A DNA stretch of 43,697 nt from an uncultured Methanomassiliicoccales archaeon (GTDB taxonomy: Archaea; Thermoplasmatota; Thermoplasmata; Methanomassiliicoccales; JAAEEP01): contig CAZQLP010000004.1 of the NCBI GenBank assembly GCA_964594225.1, forward strand, positions 1-43,697, written 5' to 3'. Of the stretch, positions 1 to 39,618 are shown one piece after another. The notes beneath the pieces were generated by a model that saw only the letters and a program-made list of their open reading frames with translations, was not told the origin of the DNA and searched no databases. Numbering within the stretch: position 1 is the first letter of the stretch; every line of letters begins with the position of its first letter. The position numbers and the translations under genes were made by a program.

Positions 1-491
1 CGCTGCTGGAAGGCGAGGAGTTCGACCTCCTTACCATGGGAAGATCGGAGGGCCCGGGGTGCTACTGTTACATAAACAACATCCTGCGCACCTTCATGGA
101 CGAGCTGATGGATGATTACGGTCACGTGATCATCGATAACGAGGCCGGTATGGAGCACTTGTCCAGACGCACTACCCGGAGGATGAACGCCCTGGTACTC
201 GTAACCGATGCCACCATGATCGGCGTGGAGACCGCCTCAAGGTTGAGGGAGCTGGCATCCGAGATGGAGATCGAGATTGGCAGGATGATCCTGATCGTTA
301 ACAGGGTTCCCAGGGATATCCCTTCGGCACTGAAGAACGCCATCTCGTCATCAGGATTCGATCAAATGGTCCAGATACCGAACGACAGGCAGGTTGAGGA
401 GCTCAACATGGTGGGGAAGCCCCTCTCCTCCTTGGATGGCACCAACCGGGCCCTGAGGGCGCTGAGGAAGCTGGCCTCCGAGCTCAGATGA
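1..491 (+). CDS. cooC: CooC/AcsF-type nickel-insertion ATPase (partial; 5' end lies outside the window)
   Basis: The frame is open from the window edge (LLEGEEFDLLTMGRSEGPGCYC...). It is a MinD-fold accessory ATPase with the metal-binding GxGCxC motif. The stop TGA is at 489-491, convergent with acsC only 2 nt away. Confidence 0.85.
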   Translation, partial: LLEGEEFDLLTMGRSEGPGCYCYINNILRTFMDELMDDYGHVIIDNEAGMEHLSRRTTRRMNALVLVTDATMIGVETASRLRELASEMEIEIGRMILIVNRVPRDIPSALKNAISSSGFDQMVQIPNDRQVEELNMVGKPLSSLDGTNRALRALRKLASELR

Positions 492-493
492 GG

Positions 494-1834
494 TCACATC
501 GACTTGAGCAGCTTGGATATCCCGCTCGACTCCCTCGGACCCACGATGACCTTGAGGTCGGTCAGCTCCTCCAGTTTCCCGCTCATCCTGGTCACCATGC
601 CTGGAATGATGATGACCCCGCTCTTGGATTTCTGGTAAGCATCAGAATCGCTCAGGGCCTTGGCCACGCTCTCCGGGGTGAGCTTTCCGGCGGAGAAGGC
701 GGTCATCACCGAGAGTCCTTCGGTGTCCACCACCTGCAGCCACACGGGCATCTTGCTCTTCTCAACATCGCCCATAACAGTGAAGTAGGTGAGCGAGAAG
801 TTGGTGGTGAACATCAACGGGGCATCCTCCCCAGGATTGTTGATCGGGTAGAGCTCCGGCTTCACCTGTATGGGCACCTGAGGGTCGGTAAAGATGTTCT
901 GCCTCAGAACAAACAGGGGAAGGGCATGCTCCGGCAGGAGGTCATCGAAGATCACTATGCTCCCGTACTTCATGGTGGCCATCAACCCCAACGCCAGCGC
1001 CTTTTCGCTTCCCGCGGTGTCGGTGATCATCGGGTACCCCAGACCCCGGAAGGTCTTCTTCACCGAGTGCCTCCTGACAATGGTGCTGTTCTCCAGGAGG
1101 GTCCTCAGGGAGGTTGCGGCGAAATCGAGGACAATATCTTCCACCCCGGATGACCTCACCTTCTCCACCAGATCCGCCAGGGATTCAAGGCCGTCCTCGC
1201 TCCTCACGACCAAGGGGCATGACAGCTCCTTGGCGACGGATGCCATCTCGTCCGTGTTTCCAGCGGTGACGCGGGAGAGCAAGGGCCTTCTATCGGCGAC
1301 CCTGCTGGCCGCCTCTCTCATGGCGGCGGGATCCTCCGATACCAGGATCATCGGCATCTCCGTCCGGGAGGCGACGGCCTCCACCGCGGAGGCGAACTTG
1401 GTCGGATCGCCCGAGTCGTTCCTCACGGCGACCATGTCCATGATCATCATCTGGCCCACCCTCTCGAATCGCAAGGAGGTCGCCTCCTCCACCCTGGCCT
1501 CGATCCCTTGATCATCCAGGGAATCTGAGATCGCAAGGGCGTAGGCGATTGGGTGGAAGAACTTCTTCTCGTGACGAAACATCTCGGTCTCGTCACCCGT
1601 CTCAATCACGTTCTCCCCGACGCCAATCTTGACCAGCCTGATAGGCGGCGCGGATGAGGCTTCTAAGGAGGATTTCGTTTCCTCCGAGACATGAGGGCAG
1701 TCCTCCAGCTTGACCTTCTGGTTGGCCAGCTGCATGGCGAACGCCAGGCAGGTGGGGAAACCGCAGTCGCCGCAGTTTGTCTTGGGCAGGAGCTTGAAGA
1801 TCTCTATCGCCGTCGGCAGATCAATCACCTCCAA
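494..1834 (-). CDS. acsC: Corrinoid iron-sulfur protein, large subunit (AcsC / CdhE-like)
   Basis: 446 aa. It has the N-terminal 4Fe-4S motif CGDCGFPTCLAFAMQLA...CPHV and is collinear along its length with Moorella AcsC as I recall it (ETELFRHEKKF, TNFSLTYF, GLSVMTA, IVGPRE). It overlaps acsD by 14 nt. Confidence 0.9.
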   Translation of the reverse strand: MEVIDLPTAIEIFKLLPKTNCGDCGFPTCLAFAMQLANQKVKLEDCPHVSEETKSSLEASSAPPIRLVKIGVGENVIETGDETEMFRHEKKFFHPIAYALAISDSLDDQGIEARVEEATSLRFERVGQMMIMDMVAVRNDSGDPTKFASAVEAVASRTEMPMILVSEDPAAMREAASRVADRRPLLSRVTAGNTDEMASVAKELSCPLVVRSEDGLESLADLVEKVRSSGVEDIVLDFAATSLRTLLENSTIVRRHSVKKTFRGLGYPMITDTAGSEKALALGLMATMKYGSIVIFDDLLPEHALPLFVLRQNIFTDPQVPIQVKPELYPINNPGEDAPLMFTTNFSLTYFTVMGDVEKSKMPVWLQVVDTEGLSVMTAFSAGKLTPESVAKALSDSDAYQKSKSGVIIIPGMVTRMSGKLEELTDLKVIVGPRESSGISKLLKSM

Positions 1835-2777
1835 GAAGGTCGTCGACGAGCTCGTTGATCATCTTCGCCGCCCTCGGATTGCGAACGATGAGCATGTCCG
1901 CACCGGACACCAGGGCAGATAGACCGGTGGTAACCTCCCACCACATGGCCCGTTCACTCATGTCCCCGTAGTCGGGATTGTCATCCGTGGCCTCCCTGGC
2001 ATCCCAAGCAACGGAGGCGTCGCATAGCATGGGTATCTGGAGCATGTTGTCCCCCATTAGGGCCGCGAGCCTGATCCTCTCGTTGACCGAGTAGGAATAC
2101 TCCAGCCCCATTCCCAGGGCGGCCATGAGCGGGTCGGCCACTGTGTCCTCGATCTTGACCCCGAAGTCGGTCAGTAGGATGCTGATCTGCTTCGCCAGGT
2201 TGATGTCCAGGTTGGAGAAGCCGACCACAGCGTGGCCGTTCGCCATGCTCGCGGCGGAGATGGACTTGTACGCGTCCTCCTCCGCGTGAGCTAGAAGGAG
2301 CCTCTCCCCACTTCCGATGTTGCTGATCATCTCCATGGTCTTGGCGTCCTTCTCCTCATGGCCGCAGCCGTAGATTAGCAGTGGCACGGGTACGGAATCC
2401 AGCATGCGTTTGACAAGCTGCGCGGCCTCCTCGGAGGAGGTGTTTTTCTCTTCTGGGTTGGTGGACAGCAGGCGGAGGCATATGAGGTCTGCGCCGTGTT
2501 CCTCCACCCACGCCCTGCCCCACTCCACAGGGTCGTTGACAGCGTCACCGAACTCCTTCCTTACCAGCTCTGGACACTCGCTCAGGGAGTCCATAACCTC
2601 GCCAGCCAGCGCAGGGCGGTTGGGATAATCGTTCTCGTACGAAAGGAATGGCATCCCGTTCTGTCCACCGATGATCGCGTTCCTCTTTCTAGTCCCTCCG
2701 TTCTCGGCAGTGGCGCCGAGTCTGACCTCACCGATCCTGCCTGACCATTTGTCCTTTGGTGTGGGAATATCCGCCAT
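1821..2777 (-). CDS. acsD: Corrinoid iron-sulfur protein, small subunit (AcsD-like)
   Basis: 318 aa, the size of bacterial AcsD, positioned between the CODH/ACS gene and acsC. AGGAGG lies 8 nt upstream of the ATG, and the gap to the upstream gene is 21 nt. Confidence 0.8.
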   Translation of the reverse strand: MADIPTPKDKWSGRIGEVRLGATAENGGTRKRNAIIGGQNGMPFLSYENDYPNRPALAGEVMDSLSECPELVRKEFGDAVNDPVEWGRAWVEEHGADLICLRLLSTNPEEKNTSSEEAAQLVKRMLDSVPVPLLIYGCGHEEKDAKTMEMISNIGSGERLLLAHAEEDAYKSISAASMANGHAVVGFSNLDINLAKQISILLTDFGVKIEDTVADPLMAALGMGLEYSYSVNERIRLAALMGDNMLQIPMLCDASVAWDAREATDDNPDYGDMSERAMWWEVTTGLSALVSGADMLIVRNPRAAKMINELVDDLLGGD

Positions 2778-2798: not shown

Positions 2799-5700
2799 TC
2801 AGGAGATGAGGGGTGGCATGCTCATGGCCGGATGGTCGACCTTCATCATCCACTCCATGAGTCCCTCGGCGTCCGTGCAGATGGTCTCGTCGGCTATCTT
2901 GTCGACGAAATCCGGGACCCCAAGCTCCTCTGACCTGGCCTTGAGATCGTCCATGAGCGCCTCCTTGAGCTCCTTCGGCATCCAGGCGATCCTGAGGAAC
3001 CCTCCGTCCGCGGGTATGAACTTCTTGCTGGAAATATATTTTCTTCCAACACCTATGAATCCCGGCGTCTGTCTGCCCCCGCCCACCGACCCAGCGAGCG
3101 TGGAAAACTTCATCCCTATAGGGGTCATTCCCGGGGATTCTCTGTTGACCACGATCACCCCCTGCATATCGGCCGTCATGCCGACGATGCACTCGAAGCA
3201 GCCGCAGGAGGTCATGGGGTCCTCCATCATGGTGTACGCGTTGAATACCGCGAGCTTGTGATGAGAGTACTCGTAAACGGCCTCGTTCACCCCCTCCCAT
3301 TGCCCCTTTTCCTCGTCGATGGTCCTGCCCTTTAGGATGGGCTGATTGGGTCCGGTGGGCGTGATCTCCTTGCTCGCCTTGGCGTCCATCCAATTGATGG
3401 CGCCGCACAGACCGAGCCTTTCCGGGGTCACCACGCAAACGTGGTCGGGGGCAAAGCTCTGGCACAGCGTGCAGGAGTAGAATATGTCAACCGCCTCGTC
3501 CGTAAGGCCCGATATCCTCTCGTCCCTCACATCGTAGGCCTCGATGGCCTCGGGCATTCTTCTCTCGATCTCGTCCAGGTCGGTGATGATGGTCACCTGG
3601 ACCCTAGACACGATGTTGCCGAAGTCCTCCTTGATCTTGGTTATCAGGATGTCCCCGAAGTGCTTGAACTTGAGCCCCGCGGCCACCGAAGTCTTGCTCA
3701 GCCTGATCCAGAGGATGTTCCTCTGCCCGGTGTGCCAGCATCCCTCTCCGAAGTTGATGAACTGGTGCATCCTTCTCTCAAGAACCGATTCGAAGTCGTC
3801 CTGCATATTCTTACCGTAGACATCCACCAGGATGGCGAGCGGCGTGGAGGAGCCTTCCTCCATCTCGTCGACATCCTTCCCGATTATAGTAATCTTCCCG
3901 TCCTCCACCTCGTCCTCCGCTCTCATCTTCAGCAACTCGAAGGCCGTTGTCTTGGCGACCCCTCCCGCCTCCACGTACGTCTGGGGTCTCCTGACAGTCT
4001 CGCCCTCGAAGGCCGGCCCGTACGCCACCGGGATATTCACCGGAGCCAGCTTGACCTGTATCCCCCTCACCTCGATTGCCTTCTGAATGAGCTTGGAGTA
4101 GTCCTTCTCCACCACGAACTTGTCCGGTATCTCCTCCAGATCCTGGTCCGTGACCGTGGGGGAGTTATTGAACAATACCGCGAACTCAGCCGCGGCCTTT
4201 ATGTGATCTATCGGTCCCAGTTGGAGCACGAACACCTTCGGTCTGTTGGAAAGGTACTTGTGCAGTCTCTCGCGATCGCCACGCTCCACCCCGCCGAAGG
4301 AGAGCGCGGCCCTGATGGCGAAGTTGAGGCCGTGTATCGCCTGGGTGAACTCACCCACGGGGTAGAGCATGATGTCCAGTCCCATTTGGATGTTCTCGTC
4401 CCTCAGCTGCCTGATGGTATCGAAGGTGGCTATGATCAGCATTCCCTTGTTCTGACAATCCCTCACCACCTTCACAAGCTCCTTGGGATCCTCTGCCATC
4501 CCCACGAGCACCGCCGCACCTGGAATTGTGTCGTCCACGAAGGCGATGCCCAGCTCCCTCAGGATGCGGTCGGGTACGAAGCCGCAGTACGGCGTGCCCT
4601 CGTAGGGATCCACCCCGTCGATGTACTTCAGTGCCTCGATGATCTCCGCGGAGATCATCGTGACCTCGCCGGCTATAAGGGCGTTCTCCAGCGACGCTTC
4701 CTCCTTGATCTTGCTTCTCACATTACCCAGCGCTCCAGGCAGATCACCAAGGGTCTTCACCTCCCTCCCGTCCCAAGCGTAAATTGATGGAAGCTCATAC
4801 CCAGTTTCCGGGTACTCGATGAGCTGATTGTAACCGTACTTCTCGATCGCCGTGCCGAGCAGCTGATCGGCGTATCCCGCCGCTATGATGCCGCCCTCGA
4901 TGGCCATCTCGTACAGCCTCTCCTGCGATATCCTGGGTCTGCTCTCCCTCTGGTAGGTGTGCTCCAGGTCCAGCACCCATCTCCTGTACTCGATGACGTT
5001 CAGCAGCTTCTCTGCCGCCTTCTGGGGGTTCCTCTCAAAGATGTAGTATCCTCCGTACACGTCCCGGGCGGTGTTCTCAAGGACCTCGGTCACTAGTGAC
5101 GAGCCGTAGATGTAATTGATCGTCCCGACATGTACTGGCATTCCCATGGCCACGCACCATGTTCCGATGGCAACCGCCTTCTCGTGGTTGGCCTCCGGCG
5201 CCGAGGCAGCGAACGGTATCTCGTGCACGTCCACCCCGAACCTCTCCGCCAGATGGGTGGCGAAATTCGCCGCCCTGCTGTTGTCCACACAGGACCCCAT
5301 GTGCCAAACGGGGGGTAGGTCAACCCCGTTCGCCTCGCTGAGCTCCTTTATGAACGCTCTCAGACCCTCCCCAGCGTACTTCTCGGCGGCATCTGAGGCC
5401 ATCATTCCCTTCTTGGCCAGGGCAGCGGCCGAACAGCCGGTGCACACAATCAGGACGTCGTTCTTCAGGAGCTCCTCCGCTATGGTGACGTGGTTGTAAT
5501 CATGAGGGGATCTCTGGTTATTGCAACCCGCCATGAGGCATATTCCCCGGATAGTGCCGTCCTTGATCCTCTCCACGATGTGCATGAGGGGGTCATCCTC
5601 ATCGAGCTTCTCGCAGATATCCTCGATCTGCTCCAGGCTGAATCCCGCTATGACCTCGCTCTTGACATTGGGTATGTGCACCTGCAGGTGGTCCCGCTCT

Positions 5701-6905
5701 TTGTACGCCTCGATCGCCAGGCGTATGATGGCCCTGGCGCTGACCTCGGCCTCCTCCTCTCTGAACTGTACGTGAGTATCATAGGGAAGCCTGACATTGG
5801 CCATTGTTGACACGACTTTAGTTGATAGACAGGAGCTGATTTCGGCCAGGGAGGGCATGATGCACTGGTAGTCCGCAACCACCAGGTCGACGACACCGGT
5901 GGCGAGAATGAGTTCCTGGGAAGAGTAGTTAGATGCCAGGGGAACGCCCTTCCTCATCAGGGTCTCGGCGCCGGTGCAGCATATGCCCACTATATTGATG
6001 CCCTTGGCTCCCGCCTTCTTTGCCTCCTCCTCCATCTCCTTGGCCACATCCACTACGACATCGCTCAGTACCGGGTTGTGCCCGTGAACGGCGATGTTCA
6101 CCTTCTCGGCGTCGAGGCATCCCATGTTGGCCTGGGTCCTCACCAATCGCGGCGTCCCGAACAGCATGTCGGAAAAGTCGGTGGAGATCTGCTCACCCGC
6201 CAGGTCCGCGACCGCGCACTTGATCCCGCCGAACAGCACGGGGACGGGATCCGCATCGCAACCCATCGTGGTGCGGTGTATCACTTCGCTGATGGTCTGA
6301 TCGATGTTGGTGGGCATCACACCCAGCCTCTTCCAGAGGTCGATCCTCCTCTCGGTGATGGTGGAGGTGCTGAAATTAAGATAATCATGGGTGTAACGGC
6401 CGAAGTCCTCGAGGGCCGCCCCAACGACCTTCCATGTCAGGTCCTTGGTGTCAATTCCCTCGGTATCGATATCAAGCCTCTTCGCGATTCTCTTGAGCTT
6501 CTCCTCGTCCTTAACCTTGTAGGTCGGTGCCTCTCCCTCCAGCATCTTGACCACGGTCTCGGTGATGTGCTTTCCATGACCGGAGTGGGCGGCAGCGCCT
6601 CCAGCGATCATCCTGATGACTTTGCGAGCGACTATCGTGTAGTCCCTTGCGCCACATATGCCCTTATCTGGCTTACCTCCGAATGGGTCAATCCTGCACG
6701 GTCCCTGGAGACAGTTACGGCAGCAGATCCCGAGCTCACCAAAACCGCACTGGGGTAACATTTCCTCGTATCTGTCCCAGGCGGTCTCGATGCCCTTATC
6801 TTGGGCGATGAAGATGCCCTCCTGGGTCGCTATGTCGCAGCTCTTCTCCTCGCAGGATCTCATTTCCGCGATCACTTTCTTCTCTGCCTTCTCCTCAGTC
6901 TCCAT
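2799..6905 (-). CDS. Fused carbon monoxide dehydrogenase (CooS/AcsA-type) and acetyl-CoA synthase (AcsB-type)
   Basis: One uninterrupted ORF. The track start at 6920 is TTG; the ATG at 6905, preceded by GGAGGT, is the likelier start. The N-terminal ~650 aa carry CODH motifs: CGFGELGICCRNCLQGPCRI, HGHNP, CCTG, MAGCNN, TGCS, GSCVDNSR. The C-terminal ~710 aa are collinear with Moorella AcsB, including its N-terminal domain and the A-cluster motifs CxxC-x8-C-x9-C (CQSFAPDHVCVVTPERLGLCG) and SCGCFE. Confidence 0.9.
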   Translation of the reverse strand: METEEKAEKKVIAEMRSCEEKSCDIATQEGIFIAQDKGIETAWDRYEEMLPQCGFGELGICCRNCLQGPCRIDPFGGKPDKGICGARDYTIVARKVIRMIAGGAAAHSGHGKHITETVVKMLEGEAPTYKVKDEEKLKRIAKRLDIDTEGIDTKDLTWKVVGAALEDFGRYTHDYLNFSTSTITERRIDLWKRLGVMPTNIDQTISEVIHRTTMGCDADPVPVLFGGIKCAVADLAGEQISTDFSDMLFGTPRLVRTQANMGCLDAEKVNIAVHGHNPVLSDVVVDVAKEMEEEAKKAGAKGINIVGICCTGAETLMRKGVPLASNYSSQELILATGVVDLVVADYQCIMPSLAEISSCLSTKVVSTMANVRLPYDTHVQFREEEAEVSARAIIRLAIEAYKERDHLQVHIPNVKSEVIAGFSLEQIEDICEKLDEDDPLMHIVERIKDGTIRGICLMAGCNNQRSPHDYNHVTIAEELLKNDVLIVCTGCSAAALAKKGMMASDAAEKYAGEGLRAFIKELSEANGVDLPPVWHMGSCVDNSRAANFATHLAERFGVDVHEIPFAASAPEANHEKAVAIGTWCVAMGMPVHVGTINYIYGSSLVTEVLENTARDVYGGYYIFERNPQKAAEKLLNVIEYRRWVLDLEHTYQRESRPRISQERLYEMAIEGGIIAAGYADQLLGTAIEKYGYNQLIEYPETGYELPSIYAWDGREVKTLGDLPGALGNVRSKIKEEASLENALIAGEVTMISAEIIEALKYIDGVDPYEGTPYCGFVPDRILRELGIAFVDDTIPGAAVLVGMAEDPKELVKVVRDCQNKGMLIIATFDTIRQLRDENIQMGLDIMLYPVGEFTQAIHGLNFAIRAALSFGGVERGDRERLHKYLSNRPKVFVLQLGPIDHIKAAAEFAVLFNNSPTVTDQDLEEIPDKFVVEKDYSKLIQKAIEVRGIQVKLAPVNIPVAYGPAFEGETVRRPQTYVEAGGVAKTTAFELLKMRAEDEVEDGKITIIGKDVDEMEEGSSTPLAILVDVYGKNMQDDFESVLERRMHQFINFGEGCWHTGQRNILWIRLSKTSVAAGLKFKHFGDILITKIKEDFGNIVSRVQVTIITDLDEIERRMPEAIEAYDVRDERISGLTDEAVDIFYSCTLCQSFAPDHVCVVTPERLGLCGAINWMDAKASKEITPTGPNQPILKGRTIDEEKGQWEGVNEAVYEYSHHKLAVFNAYTMMEDPMTSCGCFECIVGMTADMQGVIVVNRESPGMTPIGMKFSTLAGSVGGGRQTPGFIGVGRKYISSKKFIPADGGFLRIAWMPKELKEALMDDLKARSEELGVPDFVDKIADETICTDAEGLMEWMMKVDHPAMSMPPLIS

Positions 6906-7113
6906 GGGGATTACCTCCAAAATGCCATACCCGGATTGAAAGATGCCTTAGCTGGATATCGATATCGTTGAAACTCCTTTCATAAGATATCGGTCCTCTA
7001 TCCCCGAGGTTATCTTCGAAAATCTCATATATCAAATGGGAGCCCGAACCTGTCTTCTCAGGTGTGATGGAGTTCTCATTCAGCAAGTGCAAACCTCTAG
7101 ATAATGCACCATA

Positions 7114-7128: not shown

Positions 7129-7147
7129 AGTTGGTGATTATCGGGAC

Positions 7148-7193
7148 ATTAGTACTTAAATTCTCTCGAGATATTAGTACTTAAATTCTTTCG
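7148..7193. repeat. Two direct copies of ATTAGTACTTAAATTCT(c/t)TCG with a 25-bp period
   Basis: An exact 17-mer occurs at 7148-7164 and 7173-7189. The match extends to 21 nt with one mismatch. It is intergenic, upstream of the acs operon. Confidence 0.9.
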
Positions 7194-7444: not shown

Positions 7445-8377
7445 TCAAAAATCTATCTCGGTGAACGAGGAGAGCTCATAATTGCCCCTGAGGGAGGAGA
7501 TGAAGTTCTTCAGTGATTCCCTGAGCCCGTTCGAGTCAAGCGGGCACTTGCTTGTATCGGCAACCACCACCAATGTCATCTTTTCGTAGTAGACCAGAAC
7601 CTTGGTGTAGACTGATAGCAGGTTTATCTGGTGCCCAGCCAGTTCCTGGGTCACCTCGTTGATCGCTCCGGGTCTGTCCGGGATCACGAACCCTATCTCC
7701 AGCAGCTCCGTCTCGGGCTTCAGGAATGTGATGGACAGTACCCACGAGTCGGTGTCTCCAACCATCATCAGGGGCTGACCTTCTTCCAGTCCCTCGAACA
7801 TGTCAAGGTGATCCTGGGGTATCTCGAACCAGCCATCGGTTATCCGGGAGGGCGTCTTGGTGAGCTTCCGGACGACCTTGGTCCTCATCGAGGAACTCTT
7901 TGGAGCCACACCCTTGGTGAACCTGTCCGATATATGGGAAGGCTCCACCTCCAGGGCGTCTACCTTCTCCAGTTGGATCGCTCCCTCGGCCTTCATACGG
8001 TCGAAATCGGCTAGGAGGTTCTCCTCATCGCCATAGTATGAGAGATCGACGAGCATCTTCCAGACCATGCAGACGTCGGAGATCATGCTCAGCGAAACCG
8101 AATTCAGGATATCGATGTTCCTCTCCCCCAAGAATTTGGAGATCGAGGCGCACGCTCCAGGTGCATCGAGCATGTAGAAGGTCGCCTGGCATATCCTCAT
8201 GTAGTTCTCTGGTCCGAACGTCGAGAGCACGATCTCGTAGCTCTTGGATCCGTTGTATGAGTACCTGAAGACCGTGCTGAACACCTGACTTCCATCGACC
8301 AGACCCAGAGGTCGACCGAGCTTCTCGCTGATCTTGACCTTGTTGCCGTGCAATCTGCCGAAATCCCAGAGCCTCAT
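7445..8377 (-). CDS. Internally duplicated protein with two ACT-like domains (putative small-molecule-binding regulator)
   Basis: 310 aa. It has two ACT-type segments, MLDAPGACASISKFLGERNIDILNSV and VIPDRPGAINEVTQELAGHQINLLSV. Each is preceded by a roughly 60-aa segment resembling an AbrB/SpoVT-like hairpin region (KVKISEKLGRPLGLVDGSQV / WFEIPQDHLDMFEGLEEGQPL). Confidence 0.6.
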   Translation of the reverse strand: MRLWDFGRLHGNKVKISEKLGRPLGLVDGSQVFSTVFRYSYNGSKSYEIVLSTFGPENYMRICQATFYMLDAPGACASISKFLGERNIDILNSVSLSMISDVCMVWKMLVDLSYYGDEENLLADFDRMKAEGAIQLEKVDALEVEPSHISDRFTKGVAPKSSSMRTKVVRKLTKTPSRITDGWFEIPQDHLDMFEGLEEGQPLMMVGDTDSWVLSITFLKPETELLEIGFVIPDRPGAINEVTQELAGHQINLLSVYTKVLVYYEKMTLVVVADTSKCPLDSNGLRESLKNFISSLRGNYELSSFTEIDF

Positions 8378-8601
8378 GCTTCGACCATGTTGCGCAACGT
8401 GGTCATCCTCAATAAATGTTGTGAGTTCACATTGCCGCTGAATGTGAGGTCGCTAGGATATCCAAGGAAGAATTCTGGAGGATTTCCAACATGTCCTCTC
8501 AATGGAGCCATGACTTATCAATCATGTATGGATGTTACATCGAGCTGCTTCCTGCCAGATACCTCCCCCACCCTACTTAGGGTTGTGACGCCTTTGGCTT
8601 A

Positions 8602-8626
8602 TATTGGTGATATGTATTGGTGATAT
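8602..8626. repeat. Tandem TATTGGTGATAT x2 (13-bp period) with a degenerate third copy reaching 8637
   Basis: Read directly: TATTGGTGATAT g TATTGGTGATAT c GGTGAGTATA. It sits in the 555-bp divergent intergenic region. Confidence 0.85.
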
Positions 8627-8705
8627 CGGTGAGTATAAGGTCTGTTCCTCACGTCTCCCTTCGGGAAATGAGGCTTTTCCTCTTCATTCTTCTCTTCGGT
8701 TGGCA

Positions 8706-8740
8706 TCTTATCAGTATTCTCCTTTCTTATCAGTCATTCT
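8706..8740. repeat. Direct repeat TCTTATCAGT(c)ATTCT x2 (19-bp period)
   Basis: The exact 10-mer TCTTATCAGT occurs at 8706-8715 and 8725-8734. The flanks match apart from a 1-nt indel. Confidence 0.8.
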
Positions 8741-8932
8741 TCTCCCCCTTCATCTCCCTCTTTCGGAGAGTATAGTTCGATGGACCAATCAATTCAATCA
8801 TTCGCGAAGGTCAATCTTGATCGAATCTATTCAAGCTTATGGCTCTCCCCCGAACTCGCAGGGGGGACCTCCCGCTCGAATAAGTTAAATATTCCTCAGT
8901 CCTCCATAGGGTTCGGTCAGAGATGATTCAGC

Positions 8933-9940
8933 ATGACATCCATCATCGAGGTCCAGGATCTTGTCAAGGTCTTCGATAACACAGTCAAAGCGGTGGACGA
9001 TGTCTCGTTCCAGGTAAGCGAGGGGGAGATATTCGGCTTCCTCGGTCCCAACGGGGCGGGAAAGACCACCACCATCTCCATGCTCACCACCCTGATCCGC
9101 CCCACCTCGGGCACGGCGAGGGTGTGCGGGTACGACATCGTGAAGCAGGCGTGCGATGTCCGGGGGTCCATAGGTCTCGTTCCACAGGACCTCACCGTCG
9201 ACGATGACCTGACCGGCAGGGAGAACATGCTTCTTCAGGGCGACCTGTACAAGGTGCCGAAGGAGGAGCTGGTCAACAGGGTCGACGGACTTCTTGAGCT
9301 CATCGGTCTCACCGACGCCGCGAACCGCATGGTCAAGACGTACTCTGGGGGAATGAGGAAGAGGCTGGAGCTGGCGGAGGGGCTTGTCCACCATCCCAGG
9401 GTCCTTTTCCTGGACGAGCCCACCCTGGGACTCGATGTCCAGACCAGGGCGGCCATGTGGGAGCACATCCAGAACCTGAAGGCCAAGCACAACACCACCA
9501 TCTTCCTCACGACACACTACCTTGAGGAGGCGGACGCCCTCTGCGACCGCATCGGCATCATCGATCACGGCAAGATCGTCGCCCTGGATTCCCCGAGGAC
9601 GCTGAAGGCGGGTCTGGGGGGAGACGTGATCGAGATAGTCATCGAGGAGTCGGCCGATTACTCGGAGTCGATGTCCGCCGTGAAGGGGGTCATCGATGTC
9701 AAGTTCGCCGACGGTATGTACAGGATCAAGGCCAATAACGGCGATGAGATCGCCCCCAGCGTCCTGAGATCCCTCTGGGATTCCGGTGCCACGGTGAAGT
9801 CGGTCAACATCAGCCGTCCCAACCTCGACCAGGTGTTCATGGAGTACACCGGCCGATCGCTGAGGGACGCCATGCAAACCTCCACCCAGGACCGCGGCCA
9901 GAGGATGGCGAGCGCCATGCAAGCCAGGAGGAGGCGCTAG
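8933..9940 (+). CDS. ABC transporter ATP-binding protein (ABC-2 / DrrA-like exporter family)
   Basis: Walker A GPNGAGKTT, signature YSGGMRKRL, Walker B VLFLDEPT. It has a C-terminal extension typical of DrrA-like ATPases. Confidence 0.9.
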   Translation: MTSIIEVQDLVKVFDNTVKAVDDVSFQVSEGEIFGFLGPNGAGKTTTISMLTTLIRPTSGTARVCGYDIVKQACDVRGSIGLVPQDLTVDDDLTGRENMLLQGDLYKVPKEELVNRVDGLLELIGLTDAANRMVKTYSGGMRKRLELAEGLVHHPRVLFLDEPTLGLDVQTRAAMWEHIQNLKAKHNTTIFLTTHYLEEADALCDRIGIIDHGKIVALDSPRTLKAGLGGDVIEIVIEESADYSESMSAVKGVIDVKFADGMYRIKANNGDEIAPSVLRSLWDSGATVKSVNISRPNLDQVFMEYTGRSLRDAMQTSTQDRGQRMASAMQARRRR

Positions 9941-9941
9941 G

Positions 9942-10772
9942 ATGATAAGGGAAATCGTCGCCCTCACCGTAAGGGAGCTGAAGCACTGGTACCGGGTCAA
10001 GGTCCAGGTGCTCATGACCATGTTCATGCCCCTCGTCTGGCTTGGGTTGTTCGGCCAGGCCTTTCGGTTGGATGAGATGGCAATGGGTCCAGGGATGCCC
10101 CCGGAGATGGTCCAGGATTTCTTCGCCGGGGCGCCTAACTACTTCTCGTTCATGGCCATTGGGATGCTGTGCGTGATGGTGCTGTTCACCTGCATGTTCA
10201 GCGGCATGTCGCTGGTGTGGGATCGCAGGTTCGGCTTCCTGACCAAGCTCCAGGTAGCCCCAATACAGAGAGGGGTCATACCAGTCTCCAGGATACTGTC
10301 ATCGGTGGTCAGGGCGCTCATTCAGTCCCTGGTGATCTTCGGCATAGCGATAGCTTTCGTCTACATCCCCGGTCTGACCGGTCTGGAGCTGGGTTTGGGA
10401 TTCGGGGTGTTGGATATGCTGCTGATAGTAGTCATACTCGGCCTGTTGGCCACAGGGTTCGCCGCCATATTCGTCACCATCGCGCTCTCCATAGAAAACC
10501 AGGAGACCCTGATCGGGGTGATCAACCTGCTGAACCTCCCCATCATGTTCGCCTCCGCCGCCCTCTTCCCCACGATACTCATGCCCGACTGGCTGAAAGC
10601 TGTTGCGAACATGAACCCCATAAGCTGGGCCGCGGACGGCATAAGACAGCTGGTGTTCGAGCATCCCCAGCCCATCTATGACCTTCCCGTTGAGATACTG
10701 GGCCTGGTGATATTCGCCGCACTGTTCCTGGTCATCGGGTGGTTCATGGCGCGCAGGGTGCTTAACAGGTGA
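9942..10772 (+). CDS. ABC-2 type transporter permease
   Basis: 276 aa with about 6 predicted hydrophobic helices. Its start lies 1 nt after the ATPase stop. Confidence 0.85.
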   Translation: MIREIVALTVRELKHWYRVKVQVLMTMFMPLVWLGLFGQAFRLDEMAMGPGMPPEMVQDFFAGAPNYFSFMAIGMLCVMVLFTCMFSGMSLVWDRRFGFLTKLQVAPIQRGVIPVSRILSSVVRALIQSLVIFGIAIAFVYIPGLTGLELGLGFGVLDMLLIVVILGLLATGFAAIFVTIALSIENQETLIGVINLLNLPIMFASAALFPTILMPDWLKAVANMNPISWAADGIRQLVFEHPQPIYDLPVEILGLVIFAALFLVIGWFMARRVLNR

Positions 10773-10773
10773 T

Positions 10774-11568
10774 TCAGCTCTCCTCGAGGGCGTGCTTGAT
10801 GGAGGAGATTGCCTCCACCACATCATCCGTGCCTTCCAGATCCATTGGCGATATCCCCAGAAGATCGGCCTCCACCAGTTGCGGATTGAACGGTATGGTG
10901 GCCATCACCGGGATTCCTTGATCCTCCAGGATGATCCTCACCTTCTCCGCCGCCTCCTGGGAGTACACCTTGTTGATCACCGCCACCACCCTGTCGATGC
11001 CGATCTCCGCCGCGAGGTCCTTGATCATCAGGGCGATGTCCACAGACCTCATCCCGGTCTCCACAACGACAATCATGACATCCATGTGCCTGGAACTGCC
11101 TCTTCCCAGGTGCTCAAGGCCGGCCTCCATGTCCATGATCAGGTACTGGTCTTCCTCCAGAACAAGGTGCTTCAACAGGCTCTTCAGGAGGGCGCTCTCC
11201 GGGCAGAAGCATCCCTCTCCCCCGGTCTTGATCGTGCCCAGCACGAGTAGCCTGACCCCGTCCTTCCCCTCGACGGCGAACCGCTCCGCCAAATCGTCCA
11301 CCTTAGGGTTCATCTTGAAGATGCCGCCGTAACCTCCACCCGGTCGCACACCGGTCCTCTCCTCGATCATGTCCAGCATCCTGGAGAGCGGGATCATTCG
11401 AAGGCTCACCTCCCTCTCCACACCCACCGCGCTGGCGAGGTTCGACGCCGGGTCAGCGTCAAGCACCAAGATGTCCCTACCATCCATCCCGAATAGCCTG
11501 GCCAATATGCCGGCGACGGTGGTCTTGCCCACTCCACCCTTTCCGGAAACGGCGATCTTGAGTGACAT
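10774..11568 (-). CDS. cooC: CooC-type nickel-insertion ATPase (second paralog, full length)
   Basis: 264 aa. It has the deviant Walker A GKGGVGKT and the CooC metal motif GEGCFCPE. Its start directly abuts the cooT stop (TAGATG). Confidence 0.85.
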   Translation of the reverse strand: MSLKIAVSGKGGVGKTTVAGILARLFGMDGRDILVLDADPASNLASAVGVEREVSLRMIPLSRMLDMIEERTGVRPGGGYGGIFKMNPKVDDLAERFAVEGKDGVRLLVLGTIKTGGEGCFCPESALLKSLLKHLVLEEDQYLIMDMEAGLEHLGRGSSRHMDVMIVVVETGMRSVDIALMIKDLAAEIGIDRVVAVINKVYSQEAAEKVRIILEDQGIPVMATIPFNPQLVEADLLGISPMDLEGTDDVVEAISSIKHALEES

Positions 11569-14121: not shown

Positions 14122-14231
14122 GCGGGGGTAGCCAAGCATGGTCAACGGCGCAGGACTTAAGTGCCGCCAATCGTGGCTGGGACATCCTGTCTCATAGGAG
14201 TCCGTGGGTTCGAATCCCTCCCCCCGCACCA
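14122..14231 (+). tRNA. tRNA-Leu(UAA) with a ~22-nt intron at position 37/38; CCA encoded
   Basis: Acceptor GCGGGGG/CCCCCGC. Anticodon stem CAGGA/TCCTG, with loop CTTAAG[intron]A. It has a long variable arm, a GGTTCGAATCC T-box and an A-CCA end. The T-stem pairs imperfectly (GTGGG vs CCCT, apparently one C short). Confidence 0.8.
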
Positions 14232-31944: not shown

Positions 31945-32056
31945 TGGTCCCGACTCCCGGATTTGAACCGGGGACCTGCTGATATCGGCGACTGATGACC
32001 GGCAAGCCGGTAACCCACTACAGTCAGCCGCTCTAGCCAGTCTGAGCTAAGTCGGG
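31945..32056 (-). tRNA. tRNA-Tyr(GUA) with a 34-nt intron at position 37/38; CCA encoded
   Basis: Reverse strand: CCCGACT-TA-GCTC-AGACTGGCTA-GAGC-G-GCTGA-CTGTAG[intron]A-TCAGC-AGGTC-CCCGG-TTCAAAT-CCGGG-AGTCGGG-A-CCA. The C1:G72 pair is the archaeal/eukaryal Tyr identity pair. The intron contains the hairpin CCGGCTTGCCGG. Confidence 0.9.
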
Positions 32057-39543: not shown

Positions 39544-39618
39544 TGGGGCCGCCCGAATTTGAATCGGAGTCCCGGGCTCCCAAAGCCCGAAGGATTGACC
39601 AAGCTACCCTACGGCCCC
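39544..39618 (-). tRNA. tRNA-Pro(UGG), no intron, CCA not encoded
   Basis: Reverse strand: GGGGCCG-TA-GGGTAGCTTGGTCAATCCTT-CGGGC-TTTGGGA-GCCCG-GGAC-TCCGA-TTCAAAT-TCGGG-CGGCCCC-A. The anticodon loop is TT-TGG-GA. The T-stem closes with A53-T61 rather than G-C. Confidence 0.8.

Follow-up and report, generated by a model that had tools for sequence, protein, structure and literature searches.

Does a single archaeal gene encode, in one polypeptide, both the Ni,Fe-carbon monoxide dehydrogenase (CODH) and the acetyl-CoA synthase (ACS) of the bacterial acetyl-CoA pathway? The question is raised by a 43,697-nt contig stretch from an uncultured Methanomassiliicoccales archaeon (GenBank CAZQLP010000004.1, positions 1 to 43,697, forward strand; this whole stretch is hereafter the window), in which an earlier note, made from the sequence alone, read the long open reading frame (ORF) at 2799-6920 as a fusion of the two enzymes. 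The Wood-Ljungdahl pathway has CODH/ACS at its core, and textbooks use the enzyme to show how a gas can be channelled from one active site to another. To our knowledge, CODH and ACS are separate subunits in every enzyme studied biochemically or structurally. We estimate a probability of about 80% that the gene specifies a functional single-chain bacterial-type CODH/ACS, produced by fusion of adjacent acsA and acsB genes, in a Methanomassiliicoccales-related archaeon (Thermoplasmatota).

The ORF listing places 2799..6920 on the minus strand as a 1373-codon ORF opening with TTG. Its translation is open, with the stop codon at 2799-2801, and contains all of the cluster-ligand motifs quoted in the earlier note (CGFGELGICCRNCLQGPCRI, HGHNP, CCTG, MAGCNN, TGCS and GSCVDNSR). 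The plus-strand frame of the same interval was rejected, its translation being riddled with stops. The claim of a long ORF without an internal stop therefore held, and its strand and start were corrected. We take ATG 6905 as the most likely start codon, giving a protein of 1368 aa, because a GGAGGT hexamer, which shares bases with the TTG opening the mechanical ORF, lies 7 nt upstream and because a 98%-identical homologue from JGI (P0001) is likewise called at 1368 aa. From here on, residues are numbered in this 1368-aa protein, which has a predicted mass of 152 kDa; the numbers of the earlier note are higher by 5. The gene and its parts are as follows.

2799..6905, minus strand: cooS/acsA-acsB fusion gene; coding sequence 2802-6905, 1368 aa; Pfam and NCBIfam matches
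6913..6918, minus strand: GGAGGT Shine-Dalgarno-like hexamer, read directly from the sequence, 7 nt upstream of ATG 6905
4971..6848, minus strand: Ni,Fe-CODH domain of clade-F type, residues 20-645; Pfam, NCBIfam and CODH-II alignment
4923..4970, minus strand: inter-domain linker, residues 646-661 (DLEHTYQRESRPRISQ); 16 aa, poorly conserved, from alignment columns
4041..4922, minus strand: ACS domain A1, residues 662-955; Pfam CODH_A_N, alignment to the N-terminal part of ACS_Ch and AcsB_Mt, and AlphaFold2 model
3570..4040, minus strand: ACS domain A2, residues 956-1112; Pfam CdhC at 958-1112, 216 bits
2802..3569, minus strand: ACS domain A3 with the A-cluster ligands, residues 1113-1368; Pfam ACS_CODH_B_C at 1124-1367, 400 bits

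The N-terminal half has the sequence of a clade-F Ni,Fe-CODH. It exceeds the curated cut-offs of both Pfam Prismane (PF03063; residues 60-627, 522 bits against 27) and the NCBIfam CooS equivalog TIGR01702 (residues 31-645, 681 bits against 478); the archaeal cdhA model TIGR00314 gives just 63 bits against a cut-off of 781. In phmmer searches of the PDB, residues 20-645 aligned to Carboxydothermus hydrogenoformans CODH-II 6-632 (705 bits) and residues 19-648 to Moorella AcsA 25-659. We mapped the metal ligands and the acid-base pair through the HMMER alignment to CODH-II, which placed the D-cluster ligands at C53 and C61, the B-cluster ligands at C62, C65, C70 and C84, the C-cluster ligands at H276, C310, C348, C461, C491 and C539, and the acid-base pair at H107 and K576. 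Their CODH-II counterparts we take to be C39/C47 (D), C48/C51/C56/C70 (B), H261, C295, C333, C446, C476 and C526 (C), and H93 and K563. To gauge conservation we aligned the window protein with 52 fused homologues of 54-89% identity. Across these 53 sequences, H107 and the ligands of the B-, D- and C-clusters do not vary, except that C61 and K576 are conserved at 90% or more; the cluster ligands and the acid-base pair are thus all in place. At its extreme N-terminus the window protein has only C18-x4-C23 (nt ~6837-6854); many fused homologues (e.g. P0039, P0049 and P0077) have an N-terminal C-x-C-x5-C motif.

The C-terminal half is a complete three-domain AcsB, including the N-terminal domain that docks onto CODH. 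The NCBIfam AcsB-type model NF040764 matches residues 670-1367 over profile positions 2-705 of 705 (964 bits, cut-off 800), and Pfam CODH_A_N matches residues 682-762. In the PDB search, residues 664-1366 aligned to Moorella AcsB 21-728 (797 bits) and residues 645-1367 to ACS_Ch 5-732. Domain A1 consists of an N-terminal helical region and a Rossmann fold. In bacterial enzymes A1 is the part that attaches to CODH, and the hydrophobic CO tunnel leads through it from the C-cluster to the A-cluster. In the A-cluster, four cysteines hold the [4Fe-4S] cluster, one of them as a bridge, and a Cys-Gly-Cys motif provides the two Ni sites. All of these AcsB ligands are present in A3: C1145, C1148, C1157, C1167 and C1234-G1235-C1236 match identical residues of the solved ACS_Ch structure, and the cysteines are conserved at 90% or more in the 53-sequence alignment. 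Presumably they correspond to Moorella C506, C509, C518, C528 and C595-G596-C597, and F1151 to Moorella F512. Because the ligand sets of both halves are kept in the aligned fused homologues, both halves look catalytically competent at the level of sequence.

In some fused homologues, such as P0022 (1894 aa) and P0025 (1896 aa), a ~530-aa intein (Pfam PF14528/PF14890) sits inside the A-cluster CxxC motif, inserted after ...SCTL and before CQSFAPDHVC, with C as its first residue and N as its last. From this position, the +1 nucleophile of the extein would be the bridging A-cluster cysteine, the equivalent of C1148. At locus L032 (intein region approx. 9737-11400), the tblastn high-scoring segment pair (HSP) ends at residue 1148, and acsD lies ~1.6 kb farther downstream than usual.

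Between the two halves the join is short. The end of CODH is marked by the invariant R641-R642-W643, and the start of ACS by a conserved helix with L664, A668, G671, I674-A675 and G677. Among 117 aligned fused proteins the spacing from W643 to G671 is 27-38 residues, the shortest value, 27, occurring in the lineage of the window. No column of the linker core rises above about 50% consensus, and its variable part ranges from 16 to about 27 residues across lineages, always in frame. GC content, GC content at third codon positions and codon usage are alike in both halves (codon-count correlation r = 0.93) and in neighbouring archaeal genes, which argues against a chimeric join. The core of the architecture proposed in the earlier note is therefore upheld by the Pfam, NCBIfam and PDB alignments: one chain comprises a full CODH (20-645) and a full bacterial-type ACS (662-1368), docking domain included; the A-cluster cysteines it listed as 1150/1153/1162/1172 and 1239-G-1241 are the seven-residue set given above in our numbering; and its estimate of a 15-20-aa linker at nt 4930-4990 was essentially right, the variable core being 16 aa at nt 4923-4970.

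The fusion recurs widely in related genomes, a search of which the earlier note had proposed. A word-indexed protein search returned 144 clusters (90% identity) at E <= 1e-50, of which 120 were listed. All four Pfam domains were found in 120/120 of the listed clusters, nearly all of which are about 1355-1381 aa long and 58-98% identical, and which derive from JGI, ENA, NCBI and Logan assemblies; many fused proteins bear a dual product name in IMG. We also scanned GTDB, with one genome per species and a 201-residue junction alignment as query, and examined the best 80 of 175 relatives. The junction was covered in all of these best 80 loci; 79 matched from query residue 1 to at least 199, the exception being L077, which runs into the end of its contig. 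With the whole protein as query, tblastn gave a single HSP over residues ~2-1368 in most of the best 80, and 62 of the 68 frames not cut by a contig end have at least 1309 codons. Closed or near-closed carriers include CP070748, CP070732, CP070629, CP070751 and CP070739, as well as OY969924, OY970258, OY970393, OY969693 and OW818644. The E-values of the domain matches are effectively zero, and the architecture recurs in more than 100 independent assemblies. The fusion is thus a genuine gene, present in at least 80 archaeal species genomes and at least 120 protein clusters. A minority of loci (e.g. L010, L013, L057, L062 and L063) have a broken or shortened frame that still spans the junction.

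How did the two genes become one? We searched residues 69-1268 against 1.84 billion representatives clustered at 50% identity. Only one full-length fused cluster was found (P0110, 59% identity); shorter CODH-ACS joins (P0121, possibly P0123) also matched, and all other matches were unfused CODH or ACS proteins at no more than 53% identity. In a neighbour-joining tree of the ACS part, which is rough and without bootstrap, the fused proteins are monophyletic and the unfused P0125 group is their sister, a pattern that points to a single origin of the fusion. A contig of the sister group, from a human-gut metagenome, carries, in this order, cooC, acsA (675 aa), a 27-nt spacer, acsB (726 aa), acsC, RACo, cooC, acsD and acsE. 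Its AcsA and AcsB, 49% and 50% identical to the respective halves of the fusion, are among the closest unfused relatives; the AcsA ends with ...EYRTWKLG plus 17 residues, and the AcsB has 26 residues ahead of the conserved EGAII motif. Given the 27-nt spacing in this nearest unfused operon, loss of a stop codon would explain the fusion, and the simplest history is that the acsA stop was lost between neighbouring genes, after which both tails were shortened to the present linker. The fusion was apparently then kept by selection in Thermoplasmatota and in one further archaeal lineage.

One related locus lacks the CODH part. In a Methanomassiliicoccaceae metagenome-assembled genome (MAG), locus L083 encodes at 8001-10193 an AcsB of 730 aa without a CODH domain (P0124, MCL2606954.1), 4 nt after an ACT gene, and its synteny is that of the window: ABC transporter, ACT, AcsB, AcsD, AcsC, convergent CooC-like gene, a 341-aa gene and RACo. 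This locus reflects either a secondary loss of CODH or an independent unfused lineage. The shared synteny hints that P0124 might be nested inside the fused clade; we did not adopt that placement, as the rough neighbour-joining tree puts P0124 outside. Other joins of acs components occur in metagenomes: AcsB-CdhD/AcsD fusions (P0132, P0141 and P0128; 1209, 1225 and 938 aa), a CdhD-CODH fusion (P0155, 1122 aa), and DUF166-CODH (P0127, 878 aa), PilZ-CODH (P0133, 844 aa) and Pyr_redox_2-AcsB (P0137, 1024 aa) proteins.

To model the arrangement of the two enzymes, we ran AlphaFold2 on residues 1-955 (CODH, linker and A1) as a monomer, using the 53-sequence alignment. The model has a mean predicted local distance difference test (pLDDT) score of 88.2 and a predicted template modelling (pTM) score of 0.89. 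For a construct of 650 + 300 residues, a pTM of this size suggests that CODH and A1 are placed confidently relative to each other. The linker is mostly coil, with block means of pLDDT of 93 (641-650) and 85 (651-660), and is followed by a long helix at 661-690. Foldseek against the PDB matched the CODH part to CODH-II (TMt 0.97, root-mean-square deviation 1.5 Å) and also to AcsA of 1MJG, 1OAO and 7ZKJ; only the CODH chain was re-identified in this way. A fixed tunnel geometry is plausible from the model.

Together, these results lead us to propose that the 152-kDa chain stays intact and works as a CODH/ACS in its own right. Since the dimer-bridging D-cluster cysteines are kept, we propose that it would dimerise through the CODH domain, and that this homodimer would correspond to the alpha2beta2 enzyme of Moorella. 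CO2 and CO would be interconverted at the C-cluster, the B- and D-clusters relaying the electrons, and A1, held on the same chain by the tether, would lead the CO to the Ni-Ni-[4Fe-4S] A-cluster of A3. In a reversible reaction, this cluster would condense CO with CoA and a methyl group, the latter presumably being brought by the corrinoid Fe-S protein of the next two genes, acsD and acsC. A 1:1 stoichiometry follows directly from the fusion into one chain, and the tether would secure it together with co-translational docking.

Several observations weigh against this proposal. Six of the 68 complete frames are short (837-1239 codons), although these may be pseudogenes or MAG errors. The CODH-less AcsB lineage with the same synteny implies that the tether is dispensable in some settings. 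The model, being of a monomer, does not separate cis from trans docking in a dimer, and the fusion protein is known here from gene sequences alone.

The last of these points leaves room for an unlikely alternative, which of the rival explanations survives best: the chain could be translated as a polyprotein and then cut in the linker, yielding an ordinary two-subunit CODH/ACS whose fused gene merely ensures equimolar synthesis. The linker is indeed the least conserved segment, and mostly coil in the AlphaFold2 model. Its 16 to about 27 variable residues contain no conserved cleavage motif among the aligned fused proteins, however, and no protease gene is conserved in the cluster among the loci compared. 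The block means of 85-93 for linker pLDDT also suggest packing against the surface rather than an exposed, disordered loop.

An intact chain could still be arranged differently. If A1 docked in trans on the CODH of the other chain, the tether would cross-link the dimer instead of fixing a cis tunnel, and a model computed for a monomer leaves this arrangement open. We judge such a domain swap improbable, because the monomer already gives a confident two-domain arrangement and because a 16-residue linker would seem short for crossing the CODH dimer.

It is more improbable still that only one half functions, for example with CODH as a structural relic and ACS fed by another source of CO, or the reverse. 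The Methanomassiliicoccaceae locus with AcsB, AcsD and AcsC but no CODH domain is a precedent of a kind, as is P0121 (1141 aa), in which ACS is joined to only the C-terminal third of the CODH (Prismane) domain. Among 53 fused proteins, though, the catalytic ligands of either half, H107/K576 and the C-G-C motif included, vary little or not at all, and both halves exceed equivalog cut-offs. Finally, although a single error across a gap like the 27 nt of the nearest unfused bacterial operon could mimic a fusion, the artefact that the earlier note had in mind, separate acsA and acsB genes joined by a missed stop or frameshift in the contig, is excluded by a continuous frame in the best 80/80 GTDB loci and 120/120 listed clusters from several assembly sources, closed chromosomes among them, and by a linker that differs in length and sequence between lineages, yet is always in frame.

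We therefore return to the single-chain enzyme and to the setting in which it is encoded. Its neighbours in the window are these.

1821..2777, minus strand: acsD/cdhD-like corrinoid Fe-S protein small subunit, 318 aa; Pfam CdhD; NCBIfam NF003376, 339 bits (cut-off 280)
494..1834, minus strand: acsC/cdhE-like corrinoid Fe-S protein large subunit, 446 aa; Pfam FeS and CdhD; NF003195, 553 bits (cut-off 306)
1..491, plus strand: 3' portion of a MinD/CooC-like P-loop ATPase gene in convergent orientation; NCBIfam MinD-like, C-terminal two thirds of the profile
7445..8377, minus strand: ACT-domain protein, 310 aa, immediately upstream of the fusion; family scan and synteny
8933-9940, plus strand: 335-aa ORF, candidate ABC ATPase by its size, which matches that of the syntenic ABC ATPase of L082
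9942-10772, plus strand: ABC-2 (DrrB-like) permease; family match
10774..11568, minus strand: CooC-like P-loop ATPase, 264 aa; Pfam CbiA/AAA_31 and tblastn synteny

The acs cluster is of bacterial type and lies in the genome of an archaeon. acsD starts 21 nt downstream of the fusion gene and is syntenic in nearly all related loci; acsC, which overlaps acsD by 14 nt and encodes an N-terminal 4Fe-4S motif and a CdhD-type barrel, is syntenic in relatives as well. The convergent MinD/CooC-like gene, cut by the window edge and present in most related loci, probably encodes a Ni-insertion accessory protein. Across the best 80 loci the order cooC, fusion, acsD, acsC, convergent cooC-like gene recurs. 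A CooC-like gene lies directly upstream of the fusion in most other lineages, and CooT and CooC lie there in L081; the ACT gene is kept at the upstream position only in the Methanomassiliicoccales subgroup. The window and L082, a 98%-identical contig, share the same core gene order, and in L082 RACo comes next, just past the position of the window edge. The closed genome CP070748 has the order CooT, CooC, fusion, AcsD, AcsC, RACo, Pterin_bind (AcsE) and DUF3786. The components of a bacterial-type operon are thus found as AcsD, AcsC and a CooC-like protein in the window, and as RACo, AcsE and CooT in L081; no AcsE was seen within the window itself.

Upstream of the fusion, at window positions 7141-7190, lies a 25-nt tandem duplication whose two copies are 88% identical (minus-strand sense AGAATTTAAGTACTAAT). 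The element sits ~240-285 nt upstream of the fusion ATG, and each copy contains a TATA-box-like core, TTTAAGTA. Both copies occur in L082, and one diverged copy only in L001. To judge from its sequence, the duplication may be a duplicated archaeal promoter or regulator site; a promoter at this position would give the fusion gene a long 5' leader. An Rfam scan of the 520-nt region upstream of the fusion found no riboswitch or other RNA family. Farther upstream, a 380-aa minus-strand ORF at 8885-10027 was treated as a shadow ORF, since it has no family matches and lies opposite plus-strand ORFs.

Elsewhere in the window are genes of archaeal type for RadA, geranylgeranylglyceryl phosphate (GGGP) synthase (PcrB), a UbiA-family prenyltransferase, aIF2-alpha, the archaeal CCA-adding enzyme, PAC2 and diphthamide synthase, and the closest named relatives among the matches listed are Methanomassiliicoccales MAGs. 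Two Rfam tRNA matches, at 14122-14228 (plus strand) and 31948-32056 (minus strand), cover the whole 71-position model; with a length of 107-109 nt they must contain introns of about 35 nt, as would fit an archaeal genome. ARAGORN missed both and reported only an intron-less tRNA-Pro(TGG) at 39544-39618 (minus strand).

Among the more distant carriers, L048, L051, L052, L054-L057, L060 and L061 form one group, 53-59% identical to the query and with almost identical synteny, to which L063, L064, L066, L068, L071, L073, L077 and L078 also belong. The labels of this peat/soil group clash: Euryarchaeota, Methanobacteriota, Methanomicrobia, Halobacteriota, Bathyarchaeia, 'archaeon' and 'Candidatus Acidiferrales bacterium'. 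Because synteny and identity values are nearly the same throughout, we read the group as probably one peat/soil archaeal lineage, mis-binned or mislabelled in part of the records. GTDB probably places isolate bog_38 in Halobacteriota.

Has such a fusion been described before? The earlier note knew of none. The only prior record that our full-text literature searches found is Supplementary Table 1 of Inoue et al., 2019 (PMC6344411), which lists two fused clade-F CODHs, OGS41472.1 (Euryarchaeota archaeon RBG_16_62_10, 1275 aa) and OGS44063.1 (RBG_13_57_23, partial). Both are filed under 'others' with the remark 'Cys3 motif at the N-terminus', and the main text says only that fused Ni-CODHs were classified manually. 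Locus L042 is a contig of RBG_13_57_23. The same searches turned up no discussion or characterisation of the fusion in any paper; an earlier mention in Adam, Borrel & Gribaldo, 2018 (PNAS) is possible. Papers on carrier lineages (Zinke 2020 preprint; Yaplasmales 2022; Speth & Orphan, 2018) report ACS/CODH or CooS and AcsB with no fusion mentioned, a 2024 Cell paper on archaeal hydrogenases treats AcsB and CooS only as separate marker genes, and a 2026 preprint on acetyl-CoA decarbonylase/synthase (ACDS) notes AcsB in the same archaeal groups, leaving a CODH fusion unmentioned. The claim that no such fusion had been described thus fails on the two supplementary entries and the dual names in IMG and stands as regards characterisation; likewise, fusions turn out to be common, as the earlier note had allowed they might be, and none was found to have been characterised. 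The fusion is an uncharacterised architectural variant of a known enzyme, catalogued once and not analysed. It is not a mechanistic surprise, since it unites neighbouring genes whose products are in any case tightly complexed.

The variant is useful nonetheless. For engineering and for expression in other hosts, it supplies a construct that is already a single gene and fixes the stoichiometry at 1:1, and it allows one to ask how far CO leakage and the conformational cycle depend on dissociation of the subunits; the range of 16 to about 27 variable linker residues provides a natural comparison set. As a clean synapomorphy, it could help to trace how the acetyl-CoA pathway of bacterial type was transferred into and among archaea, its carriers including Methanomassiliicoccales relatives, UBA10834/Gimiplasmatales and Yaplasmales. 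Where a marker-gene pipeline demands high coverage of the query, the fused proteins may be miscounted. More tentatively, and with the odds rather against it, single-chain CODH/ACS could be a distinct, self-sufficient class with one origin from transferred bacterial acsA-acsB, spread as a module between archaeal phyla and altered in its behaviour by the tether. If so, a compact fusion-acsD-acsC module would have passed between Thermoplasmatota and the peat/soil lineage (Halobacteriota, Methanomicrobia or Bathyarchaeia labels), and the enzyme would be obliged to channel CO: its ACS could not dissociate, no pool of free CODH would exist, and the dimer might be cross-linked.

Compared with the two entries of Inoue et al., 2019, the window protein represents a different sub-lineage, that of the Methanomassiliicoccales, about 60% identical to L042 at the junction, with the shortest linker and with two N-terminal cysteines (C18 and C23) rather than a 'Cys3 motif'. 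With the enzymes of Moorella thermoacetica (1MJG, 1OAO) and C. hydrogenoformans (CODH-III/ACS, 7ZKJ) it shares the same two catalytic modules, the CODH half scoring 650-670 bits against AcsA_Mt and CODH-III_Ch, and the accessory genes cooC, acsC, acsD, RACo and acsE. It differs from them in its archaeal host, in the gene order fusion-acsD-acsC and in combining CODH and ACS in one polypeptide: the class III heterotetramer has separate subunits, but here and in the best 80 loci a single frame runs on across the junction without interruption. Where the AcsA and AcsB tails of the nearest unfused operon total about 46 residues from W to G, the fusion has 27-38. With archaeal ACDS (CdhABCDE; 9C0S, 3CF4) it has the overall chemistry in common, and A2-A3 are homologous to CdhC (TIGR00316, 434 bits, residues 957-1361), but it is not a member of that CdhA/CdhC family: its CODH half is not CdhA, the type with an E/F-cluster insertion, and its ACS half has the A1 domain, which is absent from CdhC. 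The acsE/RACo context likewise points to a bacterial-type methyl branch, unlike that of ACDS. In the other acs fusions, from metagenomes and Desulfomonile tiedjei, neighbouring acs components have likewise become one chain; those fusions join a catalytic subunit to a corrinoid-protein subunit, whereas in the window it is the pair of catalytic subunits with a common CO tunnel that has been joined.

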